Below, one piece after another: positions 3,313 to 34,427 of a DNA stretch of 64,000 nucleotides (position 1 is its first letter; each line of letters begins with the position of its first letter). The stretch spans positions 12,607-76,606 of the forward strand of contig NZ_DATJTA010000022.1 of the NCBI RefSeq assembly GCF_035503875.1. The letters run 5' to 3'. The position numbers were made by a program, and so were the translations under genes. The notes under the pieces are model-generated. The model did no database searches and had not been told where the DNA came from. It saw only the letters and a list, made by a program, of their open reading frames with translations. This DNA is from Nocardioides sp. Lineage in GTDB: Bacteria > Actinomycetota > Actinomycetes > Propionibacteriales > Nocardioidaceae.

Positions 3313-3353
3313 GCCGCGCCACCCGACGGTGAGGTTGGCGGCATGATGACGCC

Positions 3354-4468: not shown

Positions 4469-5208
4469 AGGTCCCGCTGACCGTGCTGGTGGTCGACGAC
4501 GAGCGGCCCACGCTCGACGAGCTCTCCTACCTGCTCGGCCGGGACCCGCGGGTCGCCGAGGTGCTGACCTGCGACAGCGCGACCGAGACCCTGCGGATGC
4601 TGCGGGAGATCGAGGTCGACGCGGTGTTCCTCGACGTCCAGATGCCCGGCCTGACCGGTCTCGAGCTCGCGCAGGTGCTGGCCCGCTTCCGGGAGCCGCC
4701 GCCGATCGTGTTCGTCACCGCCCACGACCAGCACGCGGTGAAGGCCTTCGAGCTGCAGGCCGTCGACTACGTGCTCAAGCCGGTGCGGGACGACCGGCTC
4801 GCCGAGGCGGTACGACGGGTGGTGGGTGTGGTCGAGGGCGTCGCCGACCGCGGGCCGGCCGGTGACCTGCAGGTGCCGGTCGAGCTGGGCGGAGTGACCC
4901 GCTTCGTGGCCCGCTCCGCGATCTCGTACGTCGAGGCGCAGGGCGACTACGCCCGGTTGCACACCGACGACGGCTCGCACCTGGTGCGGACGCCGCTGTC
5001 CCAGCTGGAGGACGAGTGGGGGCCGGCCGGGTTCGTGCGGATCCACCGCTCGCTGCTGGTCTCGCTCGCCCACGTCGCCGAGGTGCGGATGGACGCGGGC
5101 CGCTGCACGGTCGTCGTCGGGCGGTCCGGGGCGAGCGTCGAGCTCGGCGTCAGCCGGCGGCACACCCGGCAGCTGCGCGATCTGCTGCTGAAGCGGGCCG
5201 GCTCGTGA
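4465..5208 (+). CDS. LytR/AlgR (LytTR) family response regulator
   Basis: GTG 4465 overlaps the kinase stop (GTGA). It has the receiver VKVPLTVLVVDDERPTLDEL...DAVFLDVQMPGLTG and the C-terminal LytTR domain ISYVEAQGDYARLHTDDGSHLVRTPLSQLE...FVRIHRS. Confidence 0.9.
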   Translation: MKVPLTVLVVDDERPTLDELSYLLGRDPRVAEVLTCDSATETLRMLREIEVDAVFLDVQMPGLTGLELAQVLARFREPPPIVFVTAHDQHAVKAFELQAVDYVLKPVRDDRLAEAVRRVVGVVEGVADRGPAGDLQVPVELGGVTRFVARSAISYVEAQGDYARLHTDDGSHLVRTPLSQLEDEWGPAGFVRIHRSLLVSLAHVAEVRMDAGRCTVVVGRSGASVELGVSRRHTRQLRDLLLKRAGS

Positions 5209-5218
5209 GGACGGAGCC

Positions 5219-5581
5219 GTGACCGAGCGTGTCCGGGTGACCGGGCCGCCGCGGCGGCGTACCACCGTCCGGTCGCGGGCGCGCGACATCGACGCGGACA
5301 CCCGTCTGGGCGGGATCTACCTGCGCTCCCTGCTGCGCGAGCAGCTGCGGCTGGCGGCGCGCGTGCTCGCCGTACTCGTCGTCGCGGTGGGGTCGTGGCC
5401 GCTGCTGTTCCACCTCTGGCCGGGGCTGGCCGACGTCGACGTGGCCGGCGTACCGGTGGCGTGGGTGCTGCTCGGCGTGCTGGTCTACCCGCTGCTGCTG
5501 GGCCTGGGCTGGTGGTACGTCCGCCGGGCCGAGCGGGTCGAGCACGACTTCGCGGAGCTGCTCGACGAGGTCGGCGAGTGA
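5219..5581 (+). CDS. Small two-TM membrane protein, positional analogue of DUF485/YjcH
   Basis: 120-aa ORF with two hydrophobic segments, lying immediately upstream of the symporter and translationally coupled to it. No strong motif was recognised. Confidence 0.6.
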   Translation: MTERVRVTGPPRRRTTVRSRARDIDADTRLGGIYLRSLLREQLRLAARVLAVLVVAVGSWPLLFHLWPGLADVDVAGVPVAWVLLGVLVYPLLLGLGWWYVRRAERVEHDFAELLDEVGE

Positions 5582-7095
5582 GCTCGGCCCCGGGGATCAT
5601 CGCCATCGTGCTGGTCACCCTGACCACGCTGGCGATCGGCGCCTGGGGGCTGCGCTTCTCCCGCACGACCAGCGACTTCTTCGTCGCGTCCCGCTCGGTC
5701 AACCCGCGGCTGAACGCGACCGCGATCGGCGGCGAGTACCTCTCGGCCGCGTCCTTCCTCGGCGTCGCCGGCCTGGTGCTGACCTTCGGCGCGGACATGC
5801 TCTGGTACCCGATCGGCTGGACCGCGGGCTACCTGGTGCTGCTCGTCCTGGTGGCCGCGCCGCTGCGCCGTTCGGGGGCGTACACCCTGCCCGACTTCGC
5901 CGAGGCCCGGCTCGGCTCGCGCGCGGTCCGGGCGGTCTGCTCGGTGCTGGTCGTGGGGATCGGGTGGCTCTACCTGCTGCCACAGTTCCAGGGTGCCGGG
6001 CTGACCCTGCGCTCGGCGGTCGGGGCGCCGGTGTGGCTCGGCCCGCTGATCGTCGGGCTCGTCGTCCTGATGAACGTGACGGCGGGCGGGATGCGGAGCA
6101 TCACGTTCGTCCAGGCGTTCCAGTACTGGTTGAAGCTCACCGCGCTGCTGCTCCCGCTGATGGTGCTGCTCGTCGCGTGGGCCGGCGACGGCGCGCCGGG
6201 CAGCCGGGTGGTCGGCGAGGCCGCATCCGGGTGGTCGGTCCCGCTCGCCGACGGGGGCGGGCAGGGGCTCTACCTGACCTACTCGCTGATCGTCGCGACC
6301 TTCCTCGGCACCATGGGGCTGCCGCACGTGGTGGTCCGCTTCTACACCAACCCCGACGGCCGCGCGGCCCGTCGTACGACGCTGGTGGTGCTGGCGCTCC
6401 TCGGCGCCTTCTACCTGCTGCCCACGGCGTACGGCGCGCTCGGGCGGGTGTACGCCCCCGAGCTGGCCGAGTCGGGGCGCTCGGACGTGCTCGTGCTGGA
6501 GCTGCCGAGGCTGATCGTGCCGGGGCCACTCGGCGAGGTGCTGACAGGACTGGTGACGGCCGGTGCGTTCGCCGCGTTCCTTTCCACGTCCTCGGGACTG
6601 GCAATCGCGGTGTCCGGGGTGCTGACCCAGGACGTCACCGGTCGGGTGTACGGCGAGCGGCGGCTCGGCGGCGTGACCGCCTTCCGGCTGGCGGCTGTCG
6701 TGGCCGTCCTGGTGCCCGTGCTCGTGGCGCTCGCGATCCCGAACGTCGGCGTCGCCCGCGCGGTCGGACTCGCCTTCGCGGTGGCGGCCTCGACGTTCTG
6801 CCCGCTGCTGCTGCTCGGGATCTGGTGGAGCCGGCTCACCGACGTCGGCGCGATCGCCGGCCTCGTCGTAGGCGGGCTCGGCTCCGGTACGGCGGTCGCG
6901 TGGACGCTGGCGCCGTACTCCGCCTCCGGCTGGGCCGGCGTACTGCTGGAGCAGCCGGCCGCCTGGTCGGTCCCGCTGGCCGTCGCGACGATGGTCGGCG
7001 TCAGCCTGCTGACGCCCGGGCGGGTCCCCGCCCACACGCGCCGGGTGATGGTGCGGCTGCACACGCCAGAGGCGGTGGAGCTGGATCGGGGGTGA
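5578..7095 (+). CDS. Solute:sodium symporter family transporter (monocarboxylate/acetate-type)
   Basis: GTG 5578 overlaps the upstream stop (GTGA). The N-terminus VSSAPGIIAIVLV..FFVASRSVNPRLNATAIGGEYLSAASFLGVAG is typical of SSF/ActP-like carriers and is multi-TM throughout. The long Arg-rich N-extension of ORF 5395.. was rejected. Confidence 0.85.
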   Translation: MSSAPGIIAIVLVTLTTLAIGAWGLRFSRTTSDFFVASRSVNPRLNATAIGGEYLSAASFLGVAGLVLTFGADMLWYPIGWTAGYLVLLVLVAAPLRRSGAYTLPDFAEARLGSRAVRAVCSVLVVGIGWLYLLPQFQGAGLTLRSAVGAPVWLGPLIVGLVVLMNVTAGGMRSITFVQAFQYWLKLTALLLPLMVLLVAWAGDGAPGSRVVGEAASGWSVPLADGGGQGLYLTYSLIVATFLGTMGLPHVVVRFYTNPDGRAARRTTLVVLALLGAFYLLPTAYGALGRVYAPELAESGRSDVLVLELPRLIVPGPLGEVLTGLVTAGAFAAFLSTSSGLAIAVSGVLTQDVTGRVYGERRLGGVTAFRLAAVVAVLVPVLVALAIPNVGVARAVGLAFAVAASTFCPLLLLGIWWSRLTDVGAIAGLVVGGLGSGTAVAWTLAPYSASGWAGVLLEQPAAWSVPLAVATMVGVSLLTPGRVPAHTRRVMVRLHTPEAVELDRG

Positions 7096-7099: not shown

Positions 7100-7660
7100 A
7101 CGCTGATTGAGGTGCCCCGAACCTCCGGAGCCCGACCAGCAGGCTGGGGTGAGGGCCGACCGTCGGCTCACCAGGTTTCGAGGCTCGCTCCGCTCGCACC
7201 TCAACCAGCGTCCAGGCAGGCGCTGACACGACGCTGATTGAGGTGCCCCGAAGCGACGCAGGAGCGCAGGGGCCTCGAAACCCCCGCAGCCCGACCAGCA
7301 GGCTGGGGTGAGGGCCGACGGCCGGCTCACCAGGTTTCGAGGCTCGCTCCGCTCGCACCTCAACCAACGTCAGGCAGGCGCTGACACGACGCTGGTTGAG
7401 GTGCCCCGAAGCGACGCAGGAGCGAAGGGGCCTCGAAACCCCCGCAGCCCGACCAGCAGGCTGAGGTGAGGGCCGATCGTCGGCTCACCAGGTTTCGAGG
7501 CTCGCTCCGCTCGCACCTCAACCAGCGTGCCGCTGGCCCCGCTCGCACCTCAACCAGCGTGCCGCCGGCCCCGCTCGCACCTCAACCAGCGTGCCGCCGG
7601 CCCCGCTCGCACCTCAACCAGCGTGCCGGCTCGCTCCGCTCGCACCTCAACCAGCGTGCG
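7100..7660. repeat. Repeat cluster A: three tandem hairpin elements (7100-7211, 7231-7370, 7389-7528) followed by five copies of a 32-33-bp tandem repeat (starts 7509, 7541, 7573, 7605, 7638)
   Basis: Each element runs ACGCTG(A/G)TTGAGGTGC...GGCCTCGAAACC...GGTTTCGAGGCTCGCTCCGCTCGCACCTCAACCA(G/A)CGT. The tandem tail repeats GCTCGCACCTCAACCAGCGTGCCGC(C/T)GGCCCC. Confidence 0.9.
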
Positions 7661-8273
7661 TCAGGGCGCCCAACAACGCCGTCGCCCGCTGCACGACCAG
7701 ATCCACGACGAGCGGGTGCGGTCCGAGCACGTCGGCGACGACGGAGGCTCCGACCGACTCGCGGCGGGTGCGGTCGGCGAAGTACCCCTCGGCGAGCAGG
7801 TACGGCGAGACCGCGTCGCCGGGGCGGACCACGGCGGCCGGGCGGAGTCCCAGTCCGGCGAGGGTGGCGAGCGAGACGGGGCCGCCCCAGGCGCCGGCGA
7901 GCAGGTCGCGGGCGCGGTGCAGGTCGCGCAGGGCGAGCGGGTCGTTCGACCCGGCGGCCACCATCGTCACCGGCTGGCCGGGCCGCGCGCCGCCGGCCAG
8001 CAGCCGGTCGACCTGGGCGGAGGCGAGCAGCGGGTCGGGGCCGAGCGGGCGGGCGCCGCCGAGGTCCTCGCGCACGTGGTAGCCGGTCGACAGCAGCAGC
8101 GGTACGACGACCGACGGCTCGGCCGGGAGCGACGCGTAGAGGGGCGAGCAGAGCTCGACGTACGACGCGACCGCGGGGAGGCCGAGCCGGGAGCCGGCGG
8201 CGGCCGTCAGGGCCCGCGCGACCTCGTTGCCGGTCGCGTGCCGGGTGCCGTGGGCGACCGTCACGAGCCTCAC
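7647..8273 (-). CDS. Sirohydrochlorin chelatase (CbiX/SirB family)
   Basis: VRLVTVAHGTRHATGNEV...VVVPLLLSTGYHV is CbiX-like. The GTG start overlaps the hemD-fusion stop (GTGA). It is the last gene of the nir operon. Confidence 0.8.
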   Translation of the reverse strand: MRLVTVAHGTRHATGNEVARALTAAAGSRLGLPAVASYVELCSPLYASLPAEPSVVVPLLLSTGYHVREDLGGARPLGPDPLLASAQVDRLLAGGARPGQPVTMVAAGSNDPLALRDLHRARDLLAGAWGGPVSLATLAGLGLRPAAVVRPGDAVSPYLLAEGYFADRTRRESVGASVVADVLGPHPLVVDLVVQRATALLGALTHAG

Positions 8274-9388
8274 GAGGGGGTCACCGCCAGCCGGTAGCCG
8301 CGCTTGACGACCGTCTGCACCGCCTTGGTGCCGAGCGCGGCGCGCAGCCGGGCAACGGCCATCTCGACGGCGTGCTCGGAGCCGGCGGTGCCCGAGGGCA
8401 GCATGGCGAGCAGGGCGCGGCGGGAGACGACGTTGCCGGGGTTGGCGACCAGCGCGTGCAGGACGGCAGTCGGGGCCGGCGACAGCTTCACCTCGACGCC
8501 GTCGAGCAGCACGTCGTCGCCGTGCAGGAGCAGCAGCGCGCCGCTGTCGAGCTCGATCGAGAGGCCCTCACGCCGCGAGGGCAGCTCGACCTCCAGCTGC
8601 TTGATCATCGCCGCGAGCCGCGAGCGCTCGGGCCAGATCGTCGGCACGCCCCACATCTCGAACGCGGCCGCGGTGACCGGGCCGACGCACGAGGCCACGA
8701 CGTCGGCCTGGAAGGCGGTGACGACGTCCTCGCGGCGCCCGGTCACGCCCGCGGCCTCCATCAGCGCCGCGACCGCGGGGGCGGAGGTGAAGGTGACCGC
8801 GTCGAGCTCGCGGTCGGCGATCAGGTCGATCATCCGGAACATCGGCTCGGGGTCCTCGGCACCCGCGACGCGATAGACGGTCACGACCGTGACGTCGGCA
8901 CCCCGGCGGCGCAGGGCGTGGGCGACCATCGAGAGCGACTGCCCATGCTCCTGGACGACGATCCGCAGGCCCGCCAGGTCGCGGCCGCGCAGGTGCTCCA
9001 GCACGTCCTCGAAGCACTCCGACTCGGGCGCCCACATCTCGCGCAGCCCGCGCCGGCGCAGCGCGCCCACCGACTTGGGTCCGCGCGCGAGGATCTCGGC
9101 CGACGACAGGACGGCGACCAGCGGATCGGCGAGCCCCCAGTCGTCGGCGGCGGAGAACCAGGTCCGCATGCCGATCCCGGTCGTCGCGAGGAACATGTCG
9201 ACCGGCCGGGCGAGCACCTCCTCGGTCGCCGCGCGCAGTGACGCGTCGTCGACCTGGTTGGGGTCCTGCGAGAGCGCGGGCGCCCACTCGACGGTCGCGC
9301 CGCGTCTTTCGAGCAGGGCGATCTGCTCCTCCACCTTGCGCGCGGCGGTCACGCCGACGCGGAAGCCGGCGAGGGGCTGGTCGCTCAC
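8270..9388 (-). CDS. Uroporphyrinogen-III synthase (HemD) fused to a C-terminal OmpR-type winged-helix domain
   Basis: ORF 8270..9706 trimmed to GTG 9388 (VSDQPLAGFRVGVTAARK). It has the HEM4 fold (two halves, DAVTFTSAPAV). The C-terminus LDGVEVKLSPAPTAVLHALVANPGNVVSRRALL...AVEMAVARLRAALG..VQTVVKRGYRL is a Trans_reg_C domain. Confidence 0.85.
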   Translation of the reverse strand: MSDQPLAGFRVGVTAARKVEEQIALLERRGATVEWAPALSQDPNQVDDASLRAATEEVLARPVDMFLATTGIGMRTWFSAADDWGLADPLVAVLSSAEILARGPKSVGALRRRGLREMWAPESECFEDVLEHLRGRDLAGLRIVVQEHGQSLSMVAHALRRRGADVTVVTVYRVAGAEDPEPMFRMIDLIADRELDAVTFTSAPAVAALMEAAGVTGRREDVVTAFQADVVASCVGPVTAAAFEMWGVPTIWPERSRLAAMIKQLEVELPSRREGLSIELDSGALLLLHGDDVLLDGVEVKLSPAPTAVLHALVANPGNVVSRRALLAMLPSGTAGSEHAVEMAVARLRAALGTKAVQTVVKRGYRLAVTPS

Positions 9389-9717
9389 GCGGGGCTCTCC
9401 CTCCTGCGACCGACGAGCACCATGCCCTCGGACACCTCGACCACGTACGACGCGACCCGGACCGCCGCGTCGTCGAGGCACTGCCCGGTGCGCAGGTCGA
9501 ACGCCTGCTTGTGCATGGGCGACGCCACGAACGGGATGTCTCCCCGCGTCCCGACGATGCCGCGGGCCAGCACCGAGGCCCGTGAGAAGGGATCGTAGTT
9601 GGAGATCGCGAGGACCTCGTCGTCGTACGTCCGGAACACGGCCACGGCCTCGCCGTCGACGAGCGCCGTCACCCCGCCCTCCACCTCGATCTGATCGAGG
9701 CGGCACACAGGGGTCAT
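9385..9717 (-). CDS. nirD: Nitrite reductase small subunit NirD (Rieske-like)
   Basis: 110 aa: MTPVCRLDQIEVEGGVTALVDGEAVAVFRTYDDEVLAISNYDPFS...SPMHKQAFDLRTGQC. The start overlaps the nirB stop. Confidence 0.9.
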   Translation of the reverse strand: MTPVCRLDQIEVEGGVTALVDGEAVAVFRTYDDEVLAISNYDPFSRASVLARGIVGTRGDIPFVASPMHKQAFDLRTGQCLDDAAVRVASYVVEVSEGMVLVGRRRESPA

Positions 9718-12233
9718 CGGGGCGCCCCCACCGGGATCGTGCTCCCGAGCGAGACCGGACCGTCGGAGTCGGCGGGCGCGATCTGCTCGCGCTCGGCGCG
9801 GAACGAGATGTGCGGGTCCGGCGTTTCCGGGGCGTTGACGAAGGAGACGAACCGGGCCAGCTTGTCGGGGTCCTCGATGGTCGCCCGCCACTCGTCGACG
9901 TAGGAGTCGACGTGGCGCGCCATGGCCGCCTCCAGCTCCGAGCCGAGCCCGAGCACGTCGTCGACGACGACCTCCTTCACCCGGTCCAGGCCGCCGTCGA
10001 GGGAGTCCACCCAGGGCGCCGTGCGCTGCAGGCGGTCGGCGGTGCGGATGTAGTACATGAGGAAGCGGTCGAGGTAGCGGACCAGGGTGTCGGTGTCGAG
10101 GTCGCCGGCCAGCAGCCGGGCGTGGGCGGGGGTGGCGCCGCCGTTGCCGCCGACGTACAGGTTCCAGCCCTTCTCGGTCGCGATCACGCCGAAGTCCTTG
10201 CCGCGGGCCTCGGCGCACTCGCGCGCGCAGCCGCTGACCCCGCCCTTGAGCTTGTGCGGCGAGCGCAGCCCGCGGTAGCGCAGCTCCAGGTCGATGGCCA
10301 GCTGCACGGAGTCCTGCACGCCGTAGCGGCACCAGGTCGAGCCGACGCACGACTTCACCGTCCGCAGGGACTTGCCGTAGGCGTGGCCGGACTCGAAGCC
10401 GGCGTCGACCAGCCGGGTCCAGATGGCCGGCAGCTGCTCCATCCGGGCGCCGAACAGGTCGATCCGCTGCCCGCCGGTGATCTTGGTGTAGAGCCCGAAG
10501 TCGCGGGCCACCTCGCCGATCACGATCAGCTTCTCGGGCGTGATCTCGCCGCCGGGGATCCGCGGGACGACGGAGTAGGTGCCGTTGCGCTGGATGTTGG
10601 CGAGGTAGGCGTCGTTGGTGTCCTGGAGCGTACGGCGATCGCTCGCAAGCACGTGGTCGTTCAGCTGGCTGGCCAGGATCGAGGCCACCGTGGGCTTGCA
10701 GACGTCGCAGCCGCGGCCGGTGCCGTGCGCCTCGACGACCTGGTCGAAGCGGGTGTACCCGTGCACCGCGACGACGTCGAAGAGCTCCTGGCGGGTGAGC
10801 GGGAAGTGCTCGCACAGGCTCCGGTCGACGACCTTGCCCACCGACTCGAAGTAGTCCTCGATGATCTTCTTCGTCTGCACCTTGCAGGAGCCGCAGGTCG
10901 TGCCGGCGCGGGTGGTCTCCCCCGCCGCCGCAGCCGCGACGATGTCGCCCTTGGTCACGTCGTTGCAGGAGCAGACCTGGGCCTCGTCCGGGAGGGTCAC
11001 CGCAGTGCCGGAGGAGACCGGCAGGATCAGCTCCTCCGGGTTGGCCGGCAGCTCGATGCCGGAGGCGACCATCGGCCGCAGCACGCCGTACGCCGACGCG
11101 TCGCCGACCAGGATCCCGCCCAGCAGCTGCTTGCCGTCCTCGGAGACGACCAGCTTCTTGTAGACGCCGGCGACGGCGTCGGAGTAGACGAGCTCGAGGC
11201 AGTCGGGCGTGGTCGCGAACGCGTCGCCGAAGCTCGCGACGTCGACGCCCATCAGCTTCAGCTTGGTGGACATGTCGGCGCCGGTGAACGACCCCGGGCC
11301 GCCGAGCAGCGCGTCCACGACGACCTCGGCCATCGTGTAGCCCGGCGCGACCAGGCCGTACATCCGCCCGCCCGGCGCCGCGCACTCGCCGATCGCCCAC
11401 ACGTGCGGGTCGGAGGTCCGGCACTGCTCGTCGACGAGCACGCCGCCACGCTCGGCGAGGTCGAGCCCGGCGGCCCGCGCGAGCGCATCGCGCGGGCGGA
11501 TGCCGGCGGAGAAGACGAGGACCTCGGCCTCGACCGGGTCGGCCACGCCCTTCAGCGCGATCCCGGCCGCCCGGCCGTCGCGCTCGACGACCGCCGACGT
11601 CATCGCGCCGGCATGGATGGTCAGGCCCAGCCGCTCCAGGTGCCGGGTCAGCGTGGCCCCGCCGGCGTCGTCGACCTGGACCGCCATCGGCCGCGGCGCC
11701 ATCTCGACCACATGGGTCTCCAGGCCGAGCTGGCGCAGCGCGTTGGCCGCCTCGAGACCGAGCAGCCCGCCGCCGACGACCGCACCGACTTTGGCGGTGG
11801 CCGCAGCCACCCGGATCGCTTCGAGGTCCTCGATCGTGCGGTAGACGAAGCAGCCCGGCAGGTCGTGGCCGGGGATCGGCGGCACGAAGGGCGCGGCGCC
11901 GGTCGCCAGCACCAGCTCGTCGTAGACCAGCACCTCGCCCCCGGCGAGCAGCACGGTCCGGGTCTCGGGGTCGATGCCCTCGACGGCGGTGCCGAGCACG
12001 AGCCGGACCCGCGGGTCGTCGTACGCGCCCTCGGGGAGGAACGACAGCTCGTCGGCCCCGCGCTCGAAGAACGAGGTCAGCGCGACCCGGTCGTACGCCG
12101 GCCGCGGCTCCTCGCCCACGACGACGACGTCGTGCGTCTCGGTCAGGCCGCGCTCGATCGCGGCCTGCACGAACCGGTGGCCGACCATCCCGTGGCCGAC
12201 GACGACGAGCTTCTTCCTCAGGTGCGGGCTCAT
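9714..12233 (-). CDS. nirB: NAD(P)H-dependent assimilatory nitrite reductase large subunit NirB
   Basis: ORF 9714..12731 trimmed to ATG 12233 (MSPHLRKKLVVVGHGMVGHRF). It has FAD/NAD Rossmann folds, a BFD-like 2Fe-2S region (CSCNDVTKG...CGSC) and the sirohaem/4Fe-4S region SCVGSTWCRYG...GCARECAEA. Confidence 0.95.
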   Translation of the reverse strand: MSPHLRKKLVVVGHGMVGHRFVQAAIERGLTETHDVVVVGEEPRPAYDRVALTSFFERGADELSFLPEGAYDDPRVRLVLGTAVEGIDPETRTVLLAGGEVLVYDELVLATGAAPFVPPIPGHDLPGCFVYRTIEDLEAIRVAAATAKVGAVVGGGLLGLEAANALRQLGLETHVVEMAPRPMAVQVDDAGGATLTRHLERLGLTIHAGAMTSAVVERDGRAAGIALKGVADPVEAEVLVFSAGIRPRDALARAAGLDLAERGGVLVDEQCRTSDPHVWAIGECAAPGGRMYGLVAPGYTMAEVVVDALLGGPGSFTGADMSTKLKLMGVDVASFGDAFATTPDCLELVYSDAVAGVYKKLVVSEDGKQLLGGILVGDASAYGVLRPMVASGIELPANPEELILPVSSGTAVTLPDEAQVCSCNDVTKGDIVAAAAAGETTRAGTTCGSCKVQTKKIIEDYFESVGKVVDRSLCEHFPLTRQELFDVVAVHGYTRFDQVVEAHGTGRGCDVCKPTVASILASQLNDHVLASDRRTLQDTNDAYLANIQRNGTYSVVPRIPGGEITPEKLIVIGEVARDFGLYTKITGGQRIDLFGARMEQLPAIWTRLVDAGFESGHAYGKSLRTVKSCVGSTWCRYGVQDSVQLAIDLELRYRGLRSPHKLKGGVSGCARECAEARGKDFGVIATEKGWNLYVGGNGGATPAHARLLAGDLDTDTLVRYLDRFLMYYIRTADRLQRTAPWVDSLDGGLDRVKEVVVDDVLGLGSELEAAMARHVDSYVDEWRATIEDPDKLARFVSFVNAPETPDPHISFRAEREQIAPADSDGPVSLGSTIPVGAPR

Positions 12234-13600
12234 GCCAGTGCTCCTTCCGTGACGAGTGAGGCGACCACGGCGGCACAGCCGCCGCAGCCGGTGGTGGCGC
12301 GGGTGGTGGTGCGGGCGTCGTCGTACGACGCGCAGGCGCGGATCCGGCCGGCGCTGACGCCCGCGCAGGCGCAGACCTCGGCGTCGTCGGCGAGCACGGC
12401 GGGGGCCGCGGTCCGCTCGGGCATCAGCAGGCGACCGGGCTCGCCGGTGCCGAGCACGGTGCCGCGGTCGAAGTGCTGGGTGATCAGGCCGACGCGCGAG
12501 AGGTCGCCGACCAGGGTCCCCGCGACGATCCGGCCGCCGTGGACCACCAGCCGCCGGTGCGACCCGACCACCGGGTTGGTCACCTCGACGACCTCGCCCT
12601 CGGCGGTGGTGGGGTCGCCGAGCACGGCCACGTCCAGCCCGGTCGCGCGCAGGCGGGCGACGCTGCGGGTCCCGGCGTACGCGACCTGCTCGCCGGCGAG
12701 GTGCGCGGCCGCGAGGCCTGCCTGCTCCCACGCCGGCGGGACGAAGCCGGTCGTCCGCCCGCGGTGCTGGGCGCAGTCGCCGATCGCGAGGATGCGCTCG
12801 TCGCTGGTGCGGAGCTGGTCGTCGACCACCACGCCCCGGCGTACGTCGAGGCCGGCGCGGCGGGCGAGCGCCGTGCTGGGCCGGCCGCCGGCGGTGAGCA
12901 CCACCAGGTCGGTGTCGAGCGTGAACCCGTTGTCGAGGACCAGCCCCGCGTCGGTGAGGCGTACGGCGCGGGCGCCGGTGTAGACGGTCGCGCCCAGCCG
13001 CTTCAGGTCCCGCGCGATGATCCGCCCGGCCTTCTCGTCCACCTGGCTGCGCAGCAGGTGCTCGCCTCCCTCGACGACCTCGACCTCGAGGCCGCGCACG
13101 CTCAGCGCGCGGGCGACCTGCAGGCCCAGCAGGCCGCCGCCGACGACGACGGCCGTTCGCGCGTCCGGCACCGCGGCGTCGAGTCGACGGCAGTCGGCCA
13201 GCGACCGGAACGCGTGCACCTTCTGGTGCAGCCTCCCGTCGACCTGCACGAGCCCACGGATCGGCGGCAGCGTCGGGATGGCGCCGGTGGCCAGGACGAG
13301 CGTGTCGTACGGCATCCGGCTGCGGTCGGCGAGCTCGATCTCGCGCTCCGCGCGGTGGATCTCGACGACCCGATTGCCGAGCCGCAGGTCGACGTCGTCG
13401 CGCAGCCCGAGCTCAAGCGCCGCGGGGTCGTGGGTGCCCTCCAGGACGGCCGAGAGCAGGATCCGGTTGTACGGCGCGTGCGGCTCGTCGCCGATCAGCG
13501 CGACGCGACCGCCGCGGCCCGCCACCTCGTCGGCCAGCCGGGCCGCCGCCATCCCCGCGCCCACCACGACGACGCGCTCGGAGGTCTGGGTGGCTGACAT
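12230..13600 (-). CDS. FAD-dependent pyridine nucleotide-disulfide oxidoreductase with BFD-like 2Fe-2S domain (NasB-like electron-transfer subunit / NirB paralogue)
   Basis: ORF 12230..13660 trimmed to ATG 13600 (MSATQTSERVVVVGAGMAAARL). It has a second Rossmann fold, VVVGGGLLGLQ, and the C-terminal motif CACAGVSAGRI...TGCGGC. Its stop overlaps the nirB start (ATGA). Confidence 0.85.
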   Translation of the reverse strand: MSATQTSERVVVVGAGMAAARLADEVAGRGGRVALIGDEPHAPYNRILLSAVLEGTHDPAALELGLRDDVDLRLGNRVVEIHRAEREIELADRSRMPYDTLVLATGAIPTLPPIRGLVQVDGRLHQKVHAFRSLADCRRLDAAVPDARTAVVVGGGLLGLQVARALSVRGLEVEVVEGGEHLLRSQVDEKAGRIIARDLKRLGATVYTGARAVRLTDAGLVLDNGFTLDTDLVVLTAGGRPSTALARRAGLDVRRGVVVDDQLRTSDERILAIGDCAQHRGRTTGFVPPAWEQAGLAAAHLAGEQVAYAGTRSVARLRATGLDVAVLGDPTTAEGEVVEVTNPVVGSHRRLVVHGGRIVAGTLVGDLSRVGLITQHFDRGTVLGTGEPGRLLMPERTAAPAVLADDAEVCACAGVSAGRIRACASYDDARTTTRATTGCGGCAAVVASLVTEGALA

Positions 13601-13682
13601 GTCCCCAGCCTCGGCAACCGGCGTAACAGCGACGACATGTCGCCGTACCGCCGTCGTCAACTCTTCCTCACGGCCTCACACC
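13601..13682 (-). promoter_or_regulatory. Conserved 82-nt upstream leader/promoter of the nasB-like-nirBD operon (copy 1 of 2)
   Basis: About 69 of 82 positions (counted by eye) are identical to 17672-17753 upstream of narK. In gene orientation it reads GGTGTGAGGCCGTGAGGA..AGTTGACGAC..CGGTACGGCGACA.G.CG.CG.TGTTACGCC. This includes TTGAC, GGTAC and GTTAC pentamers phased at 11 and 22 bp. Confidence 0.5.
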
Positions 13683-13700
13683 GGAGGTCGCGACGCCCCC

Positions 13701-14088
13701 GGTGGTCGAGCAGAGAAGGACGAAGTCCTGAACGCCCGTCGAGACCCGTCTTGCCAACCACCCACCCCGACCACCCTCACCTGCACGCTGCGGGGGTCTC
13801 GACGGGCACTCGTCGCTAGCGCTCCTCACTGCTCGACCACCGGGCACCGGAGGTCGAGCAGCGAACGGACGAAGTCCTGAGCGACCGTCGAGACCCGTCT
13901 CGCCGACCACCCACCCAGACCACCGTCACCTGCACGCTGCGGGGGTCTCGACGGACATTCGTCGCTGGCGCTCCTCACTGCTCGACCACCAGCCCCGGGG
14001 GCCGAGCAGCGAACGGACGAAGTCCCGCCGTACGCCGACCTAGACCACCCTCACCTGCACGCTGCGGGAGTCTCGACGTTCGACCACC
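13701..14088. repeat. Repeat cluster B (sister family): two full hairpin elements (13701-13840, 13847-13989) and a degenerate third copy (about 13997-14088) overlapping the nasA 3' end
   Basis: Outer arms are GGTGGTCGAGCAG / CTGCTCGACCAC and inner arms are CGTCGAGACCC / GGGTCTCGACG. The internal cassettes AAGGACGAAGTCCTGA and CGTCGCT(A/G)GCGCTCCTC are shared with the main family. Confidence 0.85.
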
Positions 14089-16127
14089 GCGGAAACCGCG
14101 GCGGCGCAGACCTTGAACTCCGGCATCCGGCTGGCGGGGTCGAGGGCGTCGTTGGTGAGCCGGTTCGCGCCGACCCAGTGGAAGGGCACGAAGACCGTGT
14201 CGGGGCGGATCGTGGTGACGACCCGGGCGGGCGCCTTCAGCTCGCCGCGGCGGGTGGCGACGACGATCGGGTCGCCGTCGCGGGCGCCGATCCGGTCGGC
14301 CAACATGGGGTGCAGCTCGACGAACGTGCCGTCGTCGGGGAGGTCGCGGACGCGGCGGGTCTGCGCGCCGGACTGGTACTGCGCGAGCACCCGGCCCGTC
14401 GTCAGGTGCACCGGGTACGACGCGTCCGGCTGCTCGGCGGCGCCGAGGTGGTCGACGTCGACGAAGCGCGCCCGACCGTCGGGGGTGGCGAAGCGGTCGG
14501 CGAAGAGCCGCGGCGTACCCGGGTGCTCCGGCGTCGGGCACGGCCAGAAGACGCCGTCCTCGGCGCGGATCCGCTCGTAGCTGATGCCGGCGTAGTCGGC
14601 TCGCCCGCCCGCGGACGCCCGCCGCAGCTCGGCGAAGACCTCCTCGGGGTCGGTCGGGAACGCGGCGGTCGAGCCGAGCCGCTCGGCCAGGCCGGCCATC
14701 ACGTCGAGGTCGCTGCGCACCCCCTCGGGTGGCGCGACGGCCCGCTCGCGCAGGATCACCCGTCCCTCGAGGTTGGTCATGGTGCCGGACTCCTCGGCCC
14801 ACTGCGTGACCGGGAGTACGACGTCCGCCAGCGCGGCCGTCTCGCTCAGCACGATGTCGGCCACGACGAGCAGCTCGAGCGCGGCCAGCCGCTCCGTGAC
14901 GTGGGTGGCGTTCGGCGCGGAGACGACGATGTTGCTGCCGAAGACGAGCAACGCGGACGACCCGTCCTCGCGGCCCAGCGAGTCGAGGAGCTCGTACGCC
15001 GAGAGCCCCTTGCCCGGCAGCGTCTCCGGCTCGACGCCCCAGACCCGGGCGACGTGCTCGCGGGCGGCCGGGTCGTCGATCATCCGGTAGCCGGGGAGCT
15101 GGTCGGACTTCTGGCCGTGCTCGCGTCCGCCCTGCCCGTTGCCCTGGCCGGTCAGGCAGCCGTAGCCCGCGTGCGGGCGTCCCGGCATGCCCAGCGCGAG
15201 CGCCACGTTCAGCCAGCCCAGCACGGTCGCGGTGCCCTGGCGGTGCTGCTCGGCGCCCCGGGCGGTCAGGACGGTGACCGTCCCCGCGCCGGCGAGCAGC
15301 TCGCCCAATCGCCGCAATTGCGGCGCTTCGACACCGGTCACCCGCTCGACCCGCTCCGGCCACCACGCCGCGGCGGTCCGCCGTACGTCGTCGAAGCCGG
15401 TCGTGCGCGAGGCGAGGTACTCCTCGTCGACGGCGCCCGCCGCGTCGAGCAGGTGCAGGACACCGAGGGCGAGCGCGAGGTCGGTGCCGGGCACCGGCTG
15501 CAGGAAGGTGTCGGCTCGGTCCGCGGTCGGCGTACGACGCGGGTCGATCACCACGACGTGTCCGCCGCGCTCGCGCAGCCGGTCCAGGTGCCGCGCGGCC
15601 GGCGGCATGGTCTCGGCGAGGTTGGAGCCGACCAGCACCAGTACGTCGGTGCCCTCGATGTCGGCCAGCGGGAACGGCAGCCCCCGGTCGATCCCGAACG
15701 CCTGGTTGCCGGCCGTCGCGGCCGACGACATGCACCAGCGGCCGTTGTAGTCGATCCGGCTGGTGCCCAGCGCGGCGCGGGCGAGCTTGCCGAGCAGGTA
15801 GGCCTTCTCGTTGGTCAGCCCGCCACCGCCGAAGATCGCGACCGTGTCCCGACCGCGCTCGGCCTGCAGCCGTCGTACGCCGTCGGCGACGACGTCGAGC
15901 GCCTCGTCCCACGACGCGGCCCGCAGCTCGCCCGTCGCCTGGTCGCGCAGCAGCGGCGTGGTCAGTCGTTCCCGGCTGCCGCGCAGGCCGGTCGCCGTCC
16001 AGCCCTTGCGACACAGCGCGCCCTCGTTGACCGGGAAGTCGCGCGCCCGCACCTCGAGCGCGCGGCCCTCACGGGCGAGGGTCATGCCGCACTGCAGGGA
16101 GCAGTAGGGGCAGTGGGTGTCGGTCAA
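14040..16127 (-). CDS. nasA: Assimilatory nitrate reductase catalytic subunit (molybdopterin oxidoreductase, NasA/NasC type)
   Basis: 695-aa ORF. The TTG start at 16127 is needed to retain the N-terminal 4Fe-4S motif CPYCSLQCG. It has a MopB body and a C-terminal molybdopterin-dinucleotide-binding domain, and starts 6 nt after the narK stop. Confidence 0.9.
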   Translation of the reverse strand: MTDTHCPYCSLQCGMTLAREGRALEVRARDFPVNEGALCRKGWTATGLRGSRERLTTPLLRDQATGELRAASWDEALDVVADGVRRLQAERGRDTVAIFGGGGLTNEKAYLLGKLARAALGTSRIDYNGRWCMSSAATAGNQAFGIDRGLPFPLADIEGTDVLVLVGSNLAETMPPAARHLDRLRERGGHVVVIDPRRTPTADRADTFLQPVPGTDLALALGVLHLLDAAGAVDEEYLASRTTGFDDVRRTAAAWWPERVERVTGVEAPQLRRLGELLAGAGTVTVLTARGAEQHRQGTATVLGWLNVALALGMPGRPHAGYGCLTGQGNGQGGREHGQKSDQLPGYRMIDDPAAREHVARVWGVEPETLPGKGLSAYELLDSLGREDGSSALLVFGSNIVVSAPNATHVTERLAALELLVVADIVLSETAALADVVLPVTQWAEESGTMTNLEGRVILRERAVAPPEGVRSDLDVMAGLAERLGSTAAFPTDPEEVFAELRRASAGGRADYAGISYERIRAEDGVFWPCPTPEHPGTPRLFADRFATPDGRARFVDVDHLGAAEQPDASYPVHLTTGRVLAQYQSGAQTRRVRDLPDDGTFVELHPMLADRIGARDGDPIVVATRRGELKAPARVVTTIRPDTVFVPFHWVGANRLTNDALDPASRMPEFKVCAAAVSAVVERRDSRSVQVRVV

Positions 16128-16133: not shown

Positions 16134-17645
16134 TCAGATCCCGGCGTTGGCAAGGCTGGTCGCCGCCTTGGCGGGCGCCGGCTTGCGGAGGAAGACCGCC
16201 CAGGTCACGACCGCGCAGACGACGTAGAAGCCGGTGAAGATCACGAACGCGCCCTTGGTCGCCTCCATCGGCTGCTCCACCCACGGGGAGCTGAAGGCGA
16301 TCGGGATCAGGAAGCCGCCGACCGCACCGACGGCGCCGATGACGCCGATCGCGGCCGAGGACTTCTTGGTGCCGGCGTGCAGGGCGGCCGCCCGCTCCGG
16401 GGTGCCGGCCGTCGTGGCGCGCTCGGCCTGGGTGCGGAAGATCGCCGGGATCATCTTGTACGTCGACCCGTTGCCGATGCCGGTCGCGGCGAAGATGCAC
16501 AGGAAGAAGGCCAGGAACCACGGGAACCAGGACTGATTGTCGTCGGCGATCGCGGGGCTCTGCGTGGGGTTCGGGGTCAGCTGGGTGAGCGTCCACAGGA
16601 CCGCCAGGGTGGCGACGATCATCCCGGCGAACGCGCCGAGGGTGACCCGCGCGCCGCCGTACTTGTCGGCCAACCAGCCGCCGAACGGTCGGGTCGCGGA
16701 GCCGACGAGCGCGCCGAGGAAGGCGAAGTACGCGAAGTAGATGCCGGTACCGAGCGGCGCCGGCTCGGGCACCCAGAAGTTGAGCTTGATCAGCAGCGGC
16801 ATCGCGGCCGAGTAGCCGATGAACGAGCCGAACGTGCCGATGTAGAGGAACGCCATCACCCAGGTCTGCCTCTCGCGGACGACCGCCAGCTGCTCGCGCG
16901 GCTTCGACTGCGCGGAGGTGAGGTTGTCCATGCAGAGGTACGCCGCGAGCGTCGCCACCACCGCGAGGGCGGCGTACACGTAGGCGGCCCGCTCCAGGTG
17001 GATCCCGCCGTCGCTGGCCTGGACCATGCCGAAGATGCCCGCGCCGCCGACGATGACCGGCAGGAAGAGCTGGATCAGCGCGACGCCCAGGTTGCCGCCG
17101 GCGGCGTTGAGGCCGAGGGCGGCGCCCTTCTTCGCGGCGGGGTAGAAGAAGTTGATGTTGGCCATCGAGCTGGCGAAGTTGCCCCCGCCGAGGCCGGCCG
17201 TCGCGGCGATCAGGCAGAACAGCCAGAACGGCGTGTCCGGGTTCTGCACCGCGACCGCGAAGCCGAGCGTCGGGATCAGCAGCAGCGCGGCGCTGGCCAT
17301 CGTCCAGTTGCGCCCGCCGAACTTCGGCACGGCGAAGGTGTACGGCAGCCGCAGCAGCGACCCCACCAGGTTGGGCAGCGCGATGAGCAGGAACAGCTGC
17401 TGCGGGCTGTAGCTGAAGCCCATCGACACCAGGAACGCCGAGCTCACGCTCCAGATCAGCCACACCGAGAACCCGAGATGCTCGGCGAAGATCGACCAGA
17501 CCAGGTTGCGCCGGGCCACCCTCCGCCCGGTCGTCTCCCAGAACTCCGGCTCCTCGGGGCGCCAGTCGTCGATCCAACGTCCGGTACGGCGGGCGGGCGC
17601 CGCCGACGTCGCGGACGTCACGGGGCGGCTGTCGGTCACGGTCAT
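16134..17645 (-). CDS. narK: Nitrate/nitrite transporter, MFS NNP family (NarK)
   Basis: 503 aa and 12-TM-like, with NNP-type motifs (GGNFASSMANINFFYP, GLNAAGGNLG). Confidence 0.9.
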   Translation of the reverse strand: MTVTDSRPVTSATSAAPARRTGRWIDDWRPEEPEFWETTGRRVARRNLVWSIFAEHLGFSVWLIWSVSSAFLVSMGFSYSPQQLFLLIALPNLVGSLLRLPYTFAVPKFGGRNWTMASAALLLIPTLGFAVAVQNPDTPFWLFCLIAATAGLGGGNFASSMANINFFYPAAKKGAALGLNAAGGNLGVALIQLFLPVIVGGAGIFGMVQASDGGIHLERAAYVYAALAVVATLAAYLCMDNLTSAQSKPREQLAVVRERQTWVMAFLYIGTFGSFIGYSAAMPLLIKLNFWVPEPAPLGTGIYFAYFAFLGALVGSATRPFGGWLADKYGGARVTLGAFAGMIVATLAVLWTLTQLTPNPTQSPAIADDNQSWFPWFLAFFLCIFAATGIGNGSTYKMIPAIFRTQAERATTAGTPERAAALHAGTKKSSAAIGVIGAVGAVGGFLIPIAFSSPWVEQPMEATKGAFVIFTGFYVVCAVVTWAVFLRKPAPAKAATSLANAGI

Positions 17646-17671
17646 GTCGAGGCTCCCTGAGAGGTCGAGGT

Positions 17672-17753
17672 GTCCTCAGCCTCGGAGCCGGGCGTAACAC
17701 CGGCGGCCTGTCGCCGTACCGATGTCGTCAACTTCTCCTCACGGCCTCACACC
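17672..17753 (-). promoter_or_regulatory. Conserved 82-nt upstream leader/promoter of narK-nasA (copy 2 of 2)
   Basis: Paralogous to 13601-13682, with the same TTGAC / GGTAC / GTTAC phasing. It lies 26 nt upstream of the narK ATG and directly abuts repeat element C. Confidence 0.5.
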
Positions 17754-17755
17754 CC

Positions 17756-17885
17756 ACGCTGGTTGAGGTGCGAGCGGAGCGAGCCTCGAAACCCGGTGAG
17801 ACACACGTCGGCCTCGGCTCGGGCTGCTTCTCTGCTCACCGGGTTTCGAGGCTCAGGACTTCGTCCTTCGCACCTCGACCAGCGT
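17756..17885. repeat. Repeat element C: single complete 130-bp hairpin element (best exemplar of the family)
   Basis: ACGCTGGTTGAGGTGCGAGCGGAGCGAGCCTCGAAACCCGGTGAG..(loop)..CTCACCGGGTTTCGAGGCTCAGGACTTCGTCCTTCGCACCTCGACCAGCGT. Confidence 0.9.
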
Positions 17886-24000: not shown

Positions 24001-24033
24001 CGTACGACGGACCCGGTGGGGGCTGCTTGTCGG

Positions 24034-34417: not shown

Positions 34418-34427
34418 CCGTCCCCCG

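Follow-up and report, generated by a model that had tools for sequence, protein, structure and literature searches.

A 64,000-nt stretch of Nocardioides DNA (hereafter the window) contains a cluster of hairpin repeats that resembles the main repeat family of the same stretch in plan but not in the sequence of its stems, raising the question of whether it is a separate family, and if so what keeps both partners of each stem changing together. A first-pass annotation had proposed that this cluster carries the same cassettes as the main family but concertedly altered outer and inner arms, and offered two readings: that the folded hairpin rather than the primary sequence is under selection, or that two sub-families are recognized by two related proteins. 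We found that the observation holds. Positions 13701-13989 contain two tandem 149-nt units of what we call family B, and we identified a decayed third unit that the annotation had not mentioned. The B arms differ from those of the main family (family A) at about 7 positions, and every difference within the arms is matched on the partner arm. The interpretation was supported only in part, with partial support for selection on the hairpin and new evidence in favor of two related proteins.

Coordinates of the repeat units and neighboring features in the window, with the basis for each.
Position	Strand	Feature	Basis and remarks
13701-13840	-	Family B unit 1	Exact matches; -76.8 kcal/mol (+ strand) and -84.8 kcal/mol (- strand), z -6.7 and -4.8; by our convention the loop polarity 5' CCCGCAGC ... 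GGCAAGACG 3' reads on the minus strand
13701-13713		Unit 1, module L, outer left arm	GGTGGTCGAGCAG
13716-13731		Unit 1, module L, cassette	AAGGACGAAGTCCTGA
13737-13747		Unit 1, module L, inner left arm	CGTCGAGACCC
13748-13793		Unit 1, loop	46 nt
13794-13804		Unit 1, module R, inner right arm	GGGTCTCGACG
13811-13827		Unit 1, module R, cassette	CGTCGCTAGCGCTCCTC
13829-13840		Unit 1, module R, outer right arm	CTGCTCGACCAC
13849-13989	-	Family B unit 2; arms 13849-13861, 13886-13896, 13943-13953 and 13978-13989; cassettes 13865-13880 and 13960-13976	Tandem copy of the same plan, 149-nt period, 90% identity to unit 1 (133 nt); one mismatch in the outer left arm and one in each cassette
13997-14078	-	Decayed third family B unit, lacking the left inner arm and the right cassette	Runs into the 3' end of the nasC-like ORF and supplies its last codons and stop (14040-14042)
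14040-16127	-	Assimilatory nitrate reductase (NasC-like) gene, upstream neighbor of cluster B	Molybdopterin, Molydop_binding, Molybdop_Fe4S4; 97% to a JGI metagenome protein, 90% to Nocardioides sp. W7 (CP095078.1), the closest named relative
12230-13602	-	FAD/NAD(P) oxidoreductase gene, first gene of the nirBD-like operon, downstream neighbor of cluster B	Pyr_redox_2; gene order as in loci L117-L120
13586-13682	-	Promoter-like region between cluster B and the oxidoreductase gene; not part of the repeat, marks its right-hand boundary	80% identical to 17657-17753 upstream of narK; conserved in L117-L120 with or without repeats next to it
17754-17885		Single family A unit upstream of the narK promoter-like region	Left cassette GAGCGGAGCGAG, right cassette TCAGGACTTCGTCCTT; -93.6 kcal/mol, z -11.1; orthologous unit present in L117, half-deleted in L118, absent in L119
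7100-7654		Family A array	Three 158-nt units followed by five solo right outer arms (four at 32-33-nt spacing)
24000-24124		Family A right half-unit plus an extra right outer arm	Between convergent genes
34425-34713		Family A array: two full units (46-nt and 17-nt loops) and a left half-unit	Carries the same two cassettes as cluster B
38935-39460		Family A array, 191-nt period	Carries cassette CGTCGCT(A/G)GCGCTCCTC, as in cluster B

We first compared the two families within the window. The family A arms CTGGTTGAGGTGCG/CGCACCTCAACCAG and CCTCGAAACCC/GGGTTTCGAGG occur in the five other clusters, where the two cassettes of cluster B recur with 0 mismatches (34442, 34578, 17853 as reverse complement; 38989, 39329, 34684 as reverse complement). 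In total the window holds six clusters with about 45 arm matches in 64 kb, all intergenic or touching gene ends. Chance does not explain the pairing. The units fold at -67 to -85 kcal/mol as RNA with z-scores of -3.4 to -6.7 against dinucleotide shuffles, and the result is similar when they are folded as DNA.

We next asked whether family B is a local oddity. An exact search for the B inner arms yielded more than 115 stretches, a lower bound, in over 20 Nocardioides genomes and metagenome-assembled genomes carrying the same B outer arms, often beside family A. Outer (O) and inner (I) arms of one family almost never mix: OB is followed by IB 103 times and by IA once, OA by IA 32 times and by IB 0 times, and on the other side IB is followed by OB 117 times and by OA once, and IA by OA 31 times versus 0. 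Cassettes are nevertheless shared between A and B in the window and in a few other genomes. Together these results rule out the reading that the B copies are merely diverged, decaying copies of family A whose matched changes are coincidental, a possibility suggested only by the presence of a single B cluster in the window and the decay of its third unit; the 97% relative, moreover, has the same array with one more unit.

A unit consists of two modules of about 45 nt (outer arm, cassette, inner arm) of the same family, inverted around a loop of about 46 nt. The nested pairing of outer with outer and inner with inner arm emphasized by the annotation is only one of two folds compatible with the data, because each module can also fold on itself: GGTY of the outer arm pairs with RACC of the adjacent inner arm, GA pairs with TC across a GA bulge, and the cassette forms the apical part. 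Family B loses two of the eight pairs that family A forms in this module hairpin, which initially argued against it, but wider data reversed that view, as the 4-bp base stem covaries cleanly across lineages whereas the next four pairs are family-A-specific. The base stem takes five fully complementary forms (GGTC/GACC, GGTT/AACC, CCCT/AGGG, TCCT/AGGA and GGCT/AGCC) with counts of 343, 205, 26, 18 and 16 against off-diagonals of 0-8, and the module-internal Y:R pair is kept in 59/60 and 60/60 units, more strictly than the nested pairing. Family C equals the family A interior with only T:A flipped to C:G, and the cassette hairpins show compensations of their own (AGGAC/GTCCT, ACGAC/GTCGT, GGGAC/GTCCC, AGTCGC/GCGACT and AGTTGC/GCAACT).

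To test whether the fold is under selection, we examined 60 distinct units from many genomes and found that 86.0% of arm cells pair across modules, compared to 80.9% in shuffles (0 of 500 as high) and 27-41% with slid partners, with 17 pairs showing changes on both sides. Units within a genome are related by descent, so these shuffle controls overstate independence, and left-right complementarity follows automatically from a unit being two inverted copies of one module type and is therefore weak evidence by itself. Primary sequence also matters, since long cores (TGGT.GAG, TCGA.ACC) recur, with variants, in the repeats beside the nuclease gene described below across taxa of 44-73% GC. Mismatches are C.A as often as G.T, giving no sign of an RNA-only constraint, although the units were not oriented to transcription, which makes the comparison uninformative on RNA versus DNA.

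We then looked for turnover at orthologous sites, using loci from relatives (L117-L120, of which L120 is from N. lianchengensis). In the spacer between nasC and the oxidoreductase gene, the window has 2+1 units, a 97% relative has one more, two relatives (90% and 88%) have none, and N. lianchengensis has a different family. The unit upstream of narK has a different right cassette in L117 and L118. Comparison of empty (L119) and filled (window, L117) sites gave no clear target-site duplication or insertion site; unit borders read CCGGTGG...CCACCGG.

We next sought proteins associated with the repeats and identified a 99-121 amino acid GIY-YIG gene of the bacterial Slx1/UPF0213 type. A translated search found no such gene in the 64-kb window, so for this genome the link rests on relatives. 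In 10 of 10 Nocardioides genome loci the gene lies inside or among these repeats, at a different chromosomal context in nearly every locus (two lie upstream of narK). It sits cleanly between inverted inner arms in six (L120, L122, L124, L125, L206 and L207), whereas the other four have rearranged flanks. Each protein searched was found at a single locus. Two clades of the protein exist, each gene copy lies inside a unit of one repeat family, and two genomes carry two paralogues, each in a different family: N. lianchengensis (GCA_013409225.1; L120 in family A, L206 in family B) and Nocardioides sp. CN2-186 (GCA_040045055.1; L122 in family A, L207 in a further family, A2). The match of clade to family is not fixed across species, however, as a B-clade protein sits in A2 arms in CN2-186 and GGTT/GGTC flanks are mixed within protein clusters, and we therefore rejected a simple one-to-one rule between protein clade and base-stem type.

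To avoid ascertainment by the repeats, we collected 80 metagenome loci by protein alone. Modules occur at 4.12/kb within 400 bp of the gene versus 0.17/kb beyond 600 bp, a 24-fold enrichment; 48 of 64 loci have modules on both sides, and 4 of 64 have no module by our pattern. Upstream modules are mostly in + orientation and downstream modules mostly in - orientation.

The protein matches PF01541 (E = 1.6e-17), with a weak T5orf172 match, and PDB entries 1ZG2 and 1YWL (UPF0213) by phmmer at E = 2e-15 and 4e-11, with weak hits to SLX1; family assignment follows PMC1564403. Y5, Y15, G17, R25, H29, Y39 and E64, in the GIY, YIG, Arg and Glu motif regions, are invariant in 8 sequences of both clades, and their equivalence to the catalytic residues is inferred from the motif pattern alone. 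SLX1 enzymes cut branched DNA (PMC6902002).

Gene-bearing units in relatives have the loop replaced by about 90 nt of leader plus the nuclease gene, the only gene inside the long copy. In L122, L125, L206 and L207 the same modules flank the gene and occur in neighboring gene-less units, and in L207, the one locus compared in detail, the short units share 24 nt and about 8 nt with the two internal ends of the gene-bearing unit. Short units look like gene-less deletion derivatives, as MITEs are to insertion sequences or REPINs to RAYT-flanking repeats.

Together our results suggest, as the explanation we consider more likely than not, that cluster B is a short tandem array of one of several old, modular palindromic intergenic repeat families of Nocardioides (A, A2, B, C and others) that co-exist in one genome, keep their arms apart while sharing cassettes, and have full-length members in related genomes carrying the nuclease gene. 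The anatomy of modules, units and gene-bearing copies is observed directly in the sequences; the mechanism, including any binding, cleavage or transposition by the protein, is inferred. In this view, the nuclease would recognize the folded module or cruciform of its own family and cut there, and host repair by recombination with other copies would then copy units, expand or contract arrays and swap cassettes. Arms that stop pairing, or stop matching the cognate nuclease, would drop out of this process, which would keep both partners of each stem changing together and keep families distinct. GIY-YIG enzymes are hydrolytic nucleases with no known strand-transfer activity, so colonization of new sites is not explained by this model, and the gene could equally have entered pre-existing loops.

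The latter possibility, that the gene is a homing-type parasite of repeats that spread or persist by another route, such as host recombination, slippage or an unknown transposase, with the nuclease gene simply inserting into the loop of a unit of the family it recognizes, is the strongest alternative, though we consider it unlikely. The gene sits exactly in the loop, gene-less units could be read as empty target sites, GIY-YIG enzymes are classic homing endonucleases (PMC1564403), and both the differing location between species and the imperfect clade-to-family match are consistent with it. With what may be hundreds of potential targets per genome, however, a homing gene should be multi-copy, whereas each protein searched was found at a single locus; the protein is the minimal Slx1-type domain without the DNA-binding modules of I-TevI-like homing enzymes; and the association holds across lineages of 44-73% GC with flanking arms that differ between lineages.

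Less likely still is that the units are primarily cis-acting RNA elements such as terminators, mRNA stabilizers or insulators between operons, with selection on the transcript's hairpin explaining the compensatory changes. Several clusters lie just after stop codons or between convergent genes, the predicted RNA folds are very stable, G.U intermediates exist (17869-17882, and family C units paired with A arms), and REPs affect mRNA stability and termination (PMC3733652). Against this, Rfam searches of the whole window and of 20 loci returned only tRNA at the gathering score, and a search of cluster B in e-value mode returned only weak generic long-hairpin hits; a promoter and terminator consensus scan of the cluster found nothing, with 0 GC-rich hairpins followed by a T run in 13450-14250; units also sit upstream of promoters (17754-17885) and occur in both orientations (58 +, 43 -); C.A mismatches are as frequent as G.U in arbitrary orientation; copy number and presence differ between close relatives at the same site; and RNA function does not explain the nuclease gene inside full-length units. 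Similarly doubtful is a model in which the arms are symmetric binding sites for a host protein (a nucleoid protein, gyrase or an IHF-like factor, as at E. coli BIMEs), both half-sites changing together because one dimer reads both and the GIY-YIG gene being incidental. The long invariant cores argue for sequence recognition and the mosaic of arms and cassettes resembles BIMEs (PMC2817692), but a symmetric site explains neither the covariation between outer and inner arm within one half, nor the compensations inside cassette hairpins, nor the enrichment of modules around the nuclease gene.

The closest known arrangement is that of REPIN-RAYT systems (Bertels & Rainey 2011, PMC3116915; Nunvar 2010, PMC2817692), in which numerous intergenic short imperfect hairpins form inverted doublets that can fold into a longer hairpin, several families co-exist per genome and differ by matched stem changes, and each family flanks its own gene for a DNA-cutting enzyme, as here, where the gene was found at one locus each where searched and the high number of repeats is inferred from the six clusters in the 64-kb window. 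Here, however, the flanked gene encodes a predicted hydrolytic GIY-YIG (Slx1/UPF0213) nuclease rather than an HUH Y1 transposase (Y1_Tnp), modules are longer and carry exchangeable cassettes, the foot of the module is GGTY...RACC with no GTAG tag, the gene's chromosomal position differs between species, and the host is in Actinomycetota, a group not covered in the REPIN papers we consulted. Like BIMEs of E. coli (mosaics of palindromic units Y/Z with extra-PU motifs), the arrays consist of palindromic units in alternating orientation separated by a small set of recurring short motifs, here the cassettes, with varying copy number of sub-blocks (e.g. the five solo outer arms at 7504-7654), but the sequences are unrelated, no gyrase, IHF or Pol I binding is known here, and BIME REPs go with RAYT. 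As in pairs of MITEs and autonomous insertion sequences, short copies keep the terminal inverted repeats and, in L207, the internal ends of a longer copy, although the gene is not a transposase and the gene-bearing copy is single rather than multi-copy. As with free-standing GIY-YIG homing endonuclease genes (I-TevI, T4 seg genes), the gene sits within a sequence that also exists in gene-less form, but here the gene-less forms are many and dispersed, not a single allelic target.

The inner arms start with CGTC (family B), CCTC (A) or TGTC (A2), the same three variants reported for the tag of CGTC-tagged REPs (Di Nocera et al. 2013, PMC3733652), which also occur mostly as head-to-head dimers and are stated to "apparently lack a dedicated transposase". 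Those REPs, found mainly in Alphaproteobacteria, have 8-9 bp stems beginning with A/T, 4-5 nt loops and a CCA tail, none of which is seen here, and the resemblance in the tag may be coincidental. Nested repeats with the same CGTCGAGACCC core occur in Microbacterium. Literature searches for the arm sequences and for the simple CTGAGCTTGTCGAAG-type core returned only unrelated primers, searches for GIY-YIG together with REP, MITE or palindromic repeats found nothing relevant, and the RepRanger paper does not cover Nocardioides; we could thus find no earlier description of this pairing of repeat and enzyme.

Genome-wide palindromic repeats are common in bacteria, yet the RAYT tyrosine transposase is the only established enzyme partner. 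The strong and taxonomically broad physical association described here concerns a tiny gene whose function in bacteria is, to our knowledge, uncharacterized, and the occurrence of paralogue-specific repeat families within single genomes turns the choice between structure and protein recognition into a testable one. A more speculative possibility, which we hold only tentatively, is that a widespread class of palindromic repeats, running from these Nocardioides families to the simple GGTCGAGC-TT-GTCGAGACC and CCTGAGC(C/T)TGTCGAAGG forms seen in metagenomes of 44-73% GC, is a second kind of repeat-plus-domesticated-nuclease system, analogous to REPIN-RAYT but built on a minimal Slx1-type structure-specific nuclease that cuts the folded repeats so that host recombination copies them. 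Family splits such as A versus B would then be specificity switches of duplicated nucleases. If true, this would give a function to the uncharacterized UPF0213/YhbQ-like proteins and might supply the missing partner for repeat families reported to lack a dedicated transposase.

The repeats also have practical consequences. They break metagenome assemblies, with many contigs carrying the gene being only 0.5-1.5 kb, and they extend or truncate annotated proteins: canonical NasC is 680-682 amino acids and ends ...KVCAAAVRA before the stop in L119, whereas NasC ends inside a repeat in the window and is 695 amino acids, and is 766 amino acids in N. lianchengensis. They also sit directly against promoter regions of nitrogen-assimilation operons.

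The window has a GC content of 73% and its proteins are closest to those of Nocardioides, with NasC 97% identical to a JGI soil metagenome protein and 90% identical to its counterpart in Nocardioides sp. W7. The array under study, cluster B, consists of two tandem units with a 149-nt period and 90% identity, each of which reads outer arm GGTGGTCGAGCAG, cassette AAGGACGAAGTCCTGA, inner arm CGTCGAGACCC, a 46-nt loop, inner arm GGGTCTCGACG, cassette CGTCGCTAGCGCTCCTC and outer arm CTGCTCGACCAC. A third, decayed unit follows and provides the last codons and the stop of the nasC-like ORF. Five other clusters carry the main family (A), whose arms are CTGGTTGAGGTGCG/CGCACCTCAACCAG and CCTCGAAACCC/GGGTTTCGAGG, and the same two cassettes occur there without a mismatch. 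Every difference between the A and B arms is matched on the partner arm, and the units fold far better than shuffled sequences, as RNA or as DNA and on either strand. The first-pass annotation, which had described a sister repeat family with unchanged cassettes and compensatorily changed stems, was therefore correct in its observation.

Cluster B lies on the minus-strand nitrate/nitrite assimilation region, in the gene order narK, nasC, cluster B, an FAD oxidoreductase, nirB, a HemD/OmpR-type regulator and cbiX. It is followed by a 97-nt promoter-like stretch that is 80% identical to the stretch upstream of narK, which in turn follows a family A unit. This duplicated region, upstream of narK and of the nir-type operon, contains tandem CGTGAGG repeats, then AGAAGTTGACG, then GGTAC-N6-ATGTC-N6-GTTACG, and resembles GlnR boxes and binding sites for the OmpR-type NnaR regulator encoded in the window. 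It is conserved in all relatives (L117 to L120 and L040, described below) whether or not repeats abut it. Scans of the cluster identified no consensus promoter and no U-tailed terminator, and no Rfam family matched.

Coordinates of the repeats, genes and associated features (L-numbers denote loci fetched from other genomes or metagenomes)
Locus	Position	Strand	Feature
Window	13701-13989		Two tandem family B units
Window	13997-14078		Decayed third unit
Window	16134-17645	-	narK
Window	14040-16127	-	nasC
Window	12230-13602	-	FAD oxidoreductase gene
Window	8270-9706		OmpR-type NnaR regulator gene
Window	13586-13682 and 17657-17753	-	Duplicated promoter-like region
Window; L120 (N. lianchengensis)	14040-14080 and 7641-7654; L120 8046-8301		Repeats that supply coding sequence (NasC, cbiX-like ORF)
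Window	7504-7654		Tandem run of solo right outer arms
L117 (NasC 97% identical), L118 (Nocardioides sp. W7) and window	L117 4300-4360 and L118 4340-4385; window 17754-17790		Orthologous family A unit upstream of narK
L120, L121, L123, L124, L125, L206, L207 (loci with the GIY-YIG gene)	L120 3860-3880, L121 2440-2455, L123 2437-2450, L124 2435-2450, L125 2436-2450, L206 2445-2455, L207 2440-2452	L120: reverse complement	CGCTCC(C/A)TCCACAG motif
L124 (N. plantarum)	2866-3849		IS481-family insertion sequence
L040 (Nocardioides sp. SYSU D00038)	3150-6721		B-flanked GIY-YIG gene upstream of narK-nasC
Window	38512-38683 and 59874-60045; 41131, 42430, 61456, 62806		Other dispersed similarities inside coding regions (D9, D7)

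We next sought to determine how widely family B is distributed. An exact search of one genome per species for the two B inner arms separated by a 25-55 nt gap returned more than 115 stretches, and in over 20 Nocardioides genomes and MAGs the hits carry the same B outer arms. Families A and B co-occur in many of these, including SYSU D00038, N. lijunqiniae, sp. 503 and MFD05499. Across 919 kb of loci plus the window, the outer and inner arms of a family are almost never mixed: left outer B arms are followed by inner B arms in 103 cases and by an inner A arm in 1, left outer A arms by inner A arms in 32 cases and inner B arms in 0, and on the opposite side inner B arms are followed by outer B arms in 117 cases and an outer A arm in 1, and inner A arms by outer A arms in 31 cases and outer B arms in 0. 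Family B is an old and widespread sister family. Further families exist, including A2 (GGTTGAGGAAG... with CTGTCTCGAAACC), C (the A interior with only T:A changed to C:G) and a GTTGGTCGAGTAG/TATCGAGATCC family in N. lianchengensis. Microbacterium genomes (L002, L009, L013, L014, L016, L017 and other loci) hold a different nested repeat built from two copies of the same arm on each side (CGTCGAGACCCATCAC x2 ... GTGATGGGTCTCGACG x2), which shares the CGTCGAGACCC core with family B; no GIY-YIG gene was seen within these 8-kb loci.

To test whether pairing is maintained, we used 60 distinct complete units anchored only on the invariant cores. For the nested fold (outer with outer, inner with inner), 86.0% of cells pair, compared to 80.9% in column shuffles (0 of 500 reach the observed value) and 27-41% with slid partners, and 17 of 32 pairs show changes on both sides. 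These copies are related by descent, so the shuffle control overstates independence, and a unit made of two inverted copies of one module type is complementary by construction. The stronger evidence concerns a different helix, in which the outer arm pairs with the adjacent inner arm of the same half. The variable pair there is kept in 59/60 and 60/60 units, whereas the corresponding cross-module pair is kept in 57/60. Across all loci, the 4 nt before GAG and the 4 nt after TCGA take five fully complementary forms (GGTC/GACC 343, GGTT/AACC 205, CCCT/AGGG 26, TCCT/AGGA 18 and GGCT/AGCC 16), with off-diagonal counts of 0-8. Many cassettes are apical hairpins with their own compensations (AGGAC/GTCCT, ACGAC/GTCGT, GGGAC/GTCCC, AGTCGC/GCGACT and AGTTGC/GCAACT). 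The heritable block is therefore a module hairpin of about 45 nt, and a unit is an inverted doublet of modules; both folds are possible. Mismatches are C.A about as often as G.T in arbitrary orientation, so nothing points to an RNA-only constraint.

To examine turnover at orthologous sites, we fetched loci through NasC homologues. Between nasC and the oxidoreductase gene, the window has 2+1 family B units, L117 (97% NasC identity) has the same array with one more unit, and both L118 (sp. W7, 90%) and L119 (88%) have no units, the latter with a 103-nt spacer and a canonical 681-aa NasC. In L120 (N. lianchengensis, 87%), this spacer holds a different family plus an A half-unit, and NasC is extended to 766 aa. 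Upstream of narK, the window has one A unit, L117 has the same unit with a different right cassette and an extra outer arm, L118 retains the right half only, L119 has none and L120 has 2.5 A units. Units are therefore gained, lost, amplified and partly converted on short time scales. The right cassette of the narK-upstream unit is GGCGCTGGCGCGCC in two relatives, L117 and L118, and CTCCGCTC in the window, which points to cassette replacement by conversion at a fixed site. Repeats also supply coding sequence: in the window NasC is 695 aa against the canonical 680-682 and ends inside the decayed unit, and the cbiX-like ORF has its stop codon inside a family A outer arm. One run of solo right outer arms (...GCTCGCACCTCAACCAGCGTGCCG...) comprises five arm copies, four of them in a 32-nt-period array, without inner arms, so that sub-blocks of a module can amplify on their own.

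These comparisons revealed an unexpected partner. In L120, a 120-aa GIY-YIG gene lies next to the narK-upstream array, and a tblastn search with it against all loci fetched to that point hit two more, L040 and L094, both of which had been brought in only by their family B repeats and in both of which the gene lies within 150 nt of the repeat match. In L040 the B-flanked gene lies upstream of narK-nasC, the same relative position as the A-flanked gene of L120, although the window and three other relatives have no gene there. A homologue search listed hundreds of such proteins, the named ones from Nocardioides and Pimelobacter. Many metagenome contigs carrying the gene are only 0.5-1.5 kb long, consistent with assemblies breaking in the flanking repeats. 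Five further genomes showed the gene in five different chromosomal contexts, each time among repeats. In six loci (L120, L122, L124, L125, L206 and L207) the gene sits cleanly between an inner arm and its inverted partner, and thus occupies the loop of one unit, whereas in the other four loci the flanks are rearranged arrays. In L124, from N. plantarum, an IS481-family insertion sequence has cut off the right-hand module next to the gene. A conserved motif, CGCTCC(C/A)TCCACAG, lies about 55 nt upstream of the start codon in both protein clades and could be a promoter, operator or leader element. In L207, the neighboring gene-less units share 24 nt (CCGGAAACG.GGAAGCGACCTT) and the final ..G.TCACC with the two internal ends of the gene-bearing unit. 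Short units therefore look like internal-deletion derivatives, or conversely like empty sites.

The proteins fall into an A-clade (67-98% identical to the L120 protein) and a B-clade (48-51%, with an RP insertion). N. lianchengensis carries an A-clade gene in A arms (L120) and a B-clade gene in B arms (L206), and Nocardioides sp. CN2-186 carries an A-clade gene in A arms (L122) and a B-clade gene in A2 arms (L207). Two paralogous proteins are what the first-pass annotation had proposed to look for. However, the clade-to-family match is not fixed across species, and GGTT/GGTC flanks flip within protein clusters, so arm changes do not simply track the deep protein split.

To assess breadth, we performed a metagenome scan seeded only with the protein alignment, which returned 80 loci of 44-73% GC. 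Modules, defined as x4-GAG-N(2-32)-TCGA-x4' with complementary x4, occur at 4.12 per kb within 400 bp of the gene compared to 0.17 per kb beyond 600 bp. Of 64 loci with sequence on both sides, 48 have modules on both sides, 12 on one side and 4 have none, and upstream modules are mostly in + orientation and downstream modules mostly in - orientation. Some lineages have cassette-free modules, for example GGTCGAGC-TT-GTCGAGACC (loci L156 and L176) and CCTGAGCCTGTCGAAGG (loci L157 and L184), suggesting that the Nocardioides cassettes are insertions in the apical loop.

The protein matches only Pfam GIY-YIG and no NCBIfam model at its cut-off. Among solved structures it matches the UPF0213 proteins 1ZG2 (E = 2e-15) and 1YWL, with weak hits to SLX1. 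Dunin-Horkawicz et al. placed these minimal bacterial proteins in the Slx1 family and asked whether more GIY-YIG members act as molecular parasites (PMC1564403). Residues in the GIY, YIG, Arg and Glu motif regions are invariant in both clades. SLX1 cuts branched DNA near the branch point (PMC6902002), which by inference would fit a substrate that can extrude as a cruciform with side hairpins.

The architecture works like that of REPIN-RAYT systems, with hairpin doublets, several families per genome and each family flanking its own single-copy enzyme gene, but it departs from them in the defining enzyme, which should be a Y1 transposase, and in lacking the GTAG tag. It resembles BIMEs in its mosaic of arms and recurring inter-arm motifs, and the MITE/IS relation in its long and short copies, although no transposase and no target duplication was found. 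The inner arms start with CGTC, CCTC or TGTC, the variants described for CGTC-tagged REPs, which "apparently lack a dedicated transposase" (PMC3733652); however, stems, loops and tails differ, and we do not assign the repeats to that group. We found no paper linking GIY-YIG genes with such repeats, which, given the incomplete literature searched, is absence of evidence only.

Together our results indicate that the stems of this genuine sister family are kept paired and that the module hairpin shows covariation with several independent changes. The interpretation in the first-pass annotation, that selection acts on the folded hairpin or alternatively that two related proteins recognize two sub-families, is supported in part, with the second reading gaining concrete support. 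The anatomy of the repeats, their distribution, their turnover and their association with the gene are direct results of the analysis, whereas recognition and cutting by the nuclease of its own family, and the spread and homogenization of units by repair, are inferred. As the window itself contains no such gene, the link for this genome is by homology with relatives. Other dispersed similarities within coding regions of the window (D9, at 73% over 172 nt, and D7) probably reflect paralogous transporter genes and are unrelated to the repeats.
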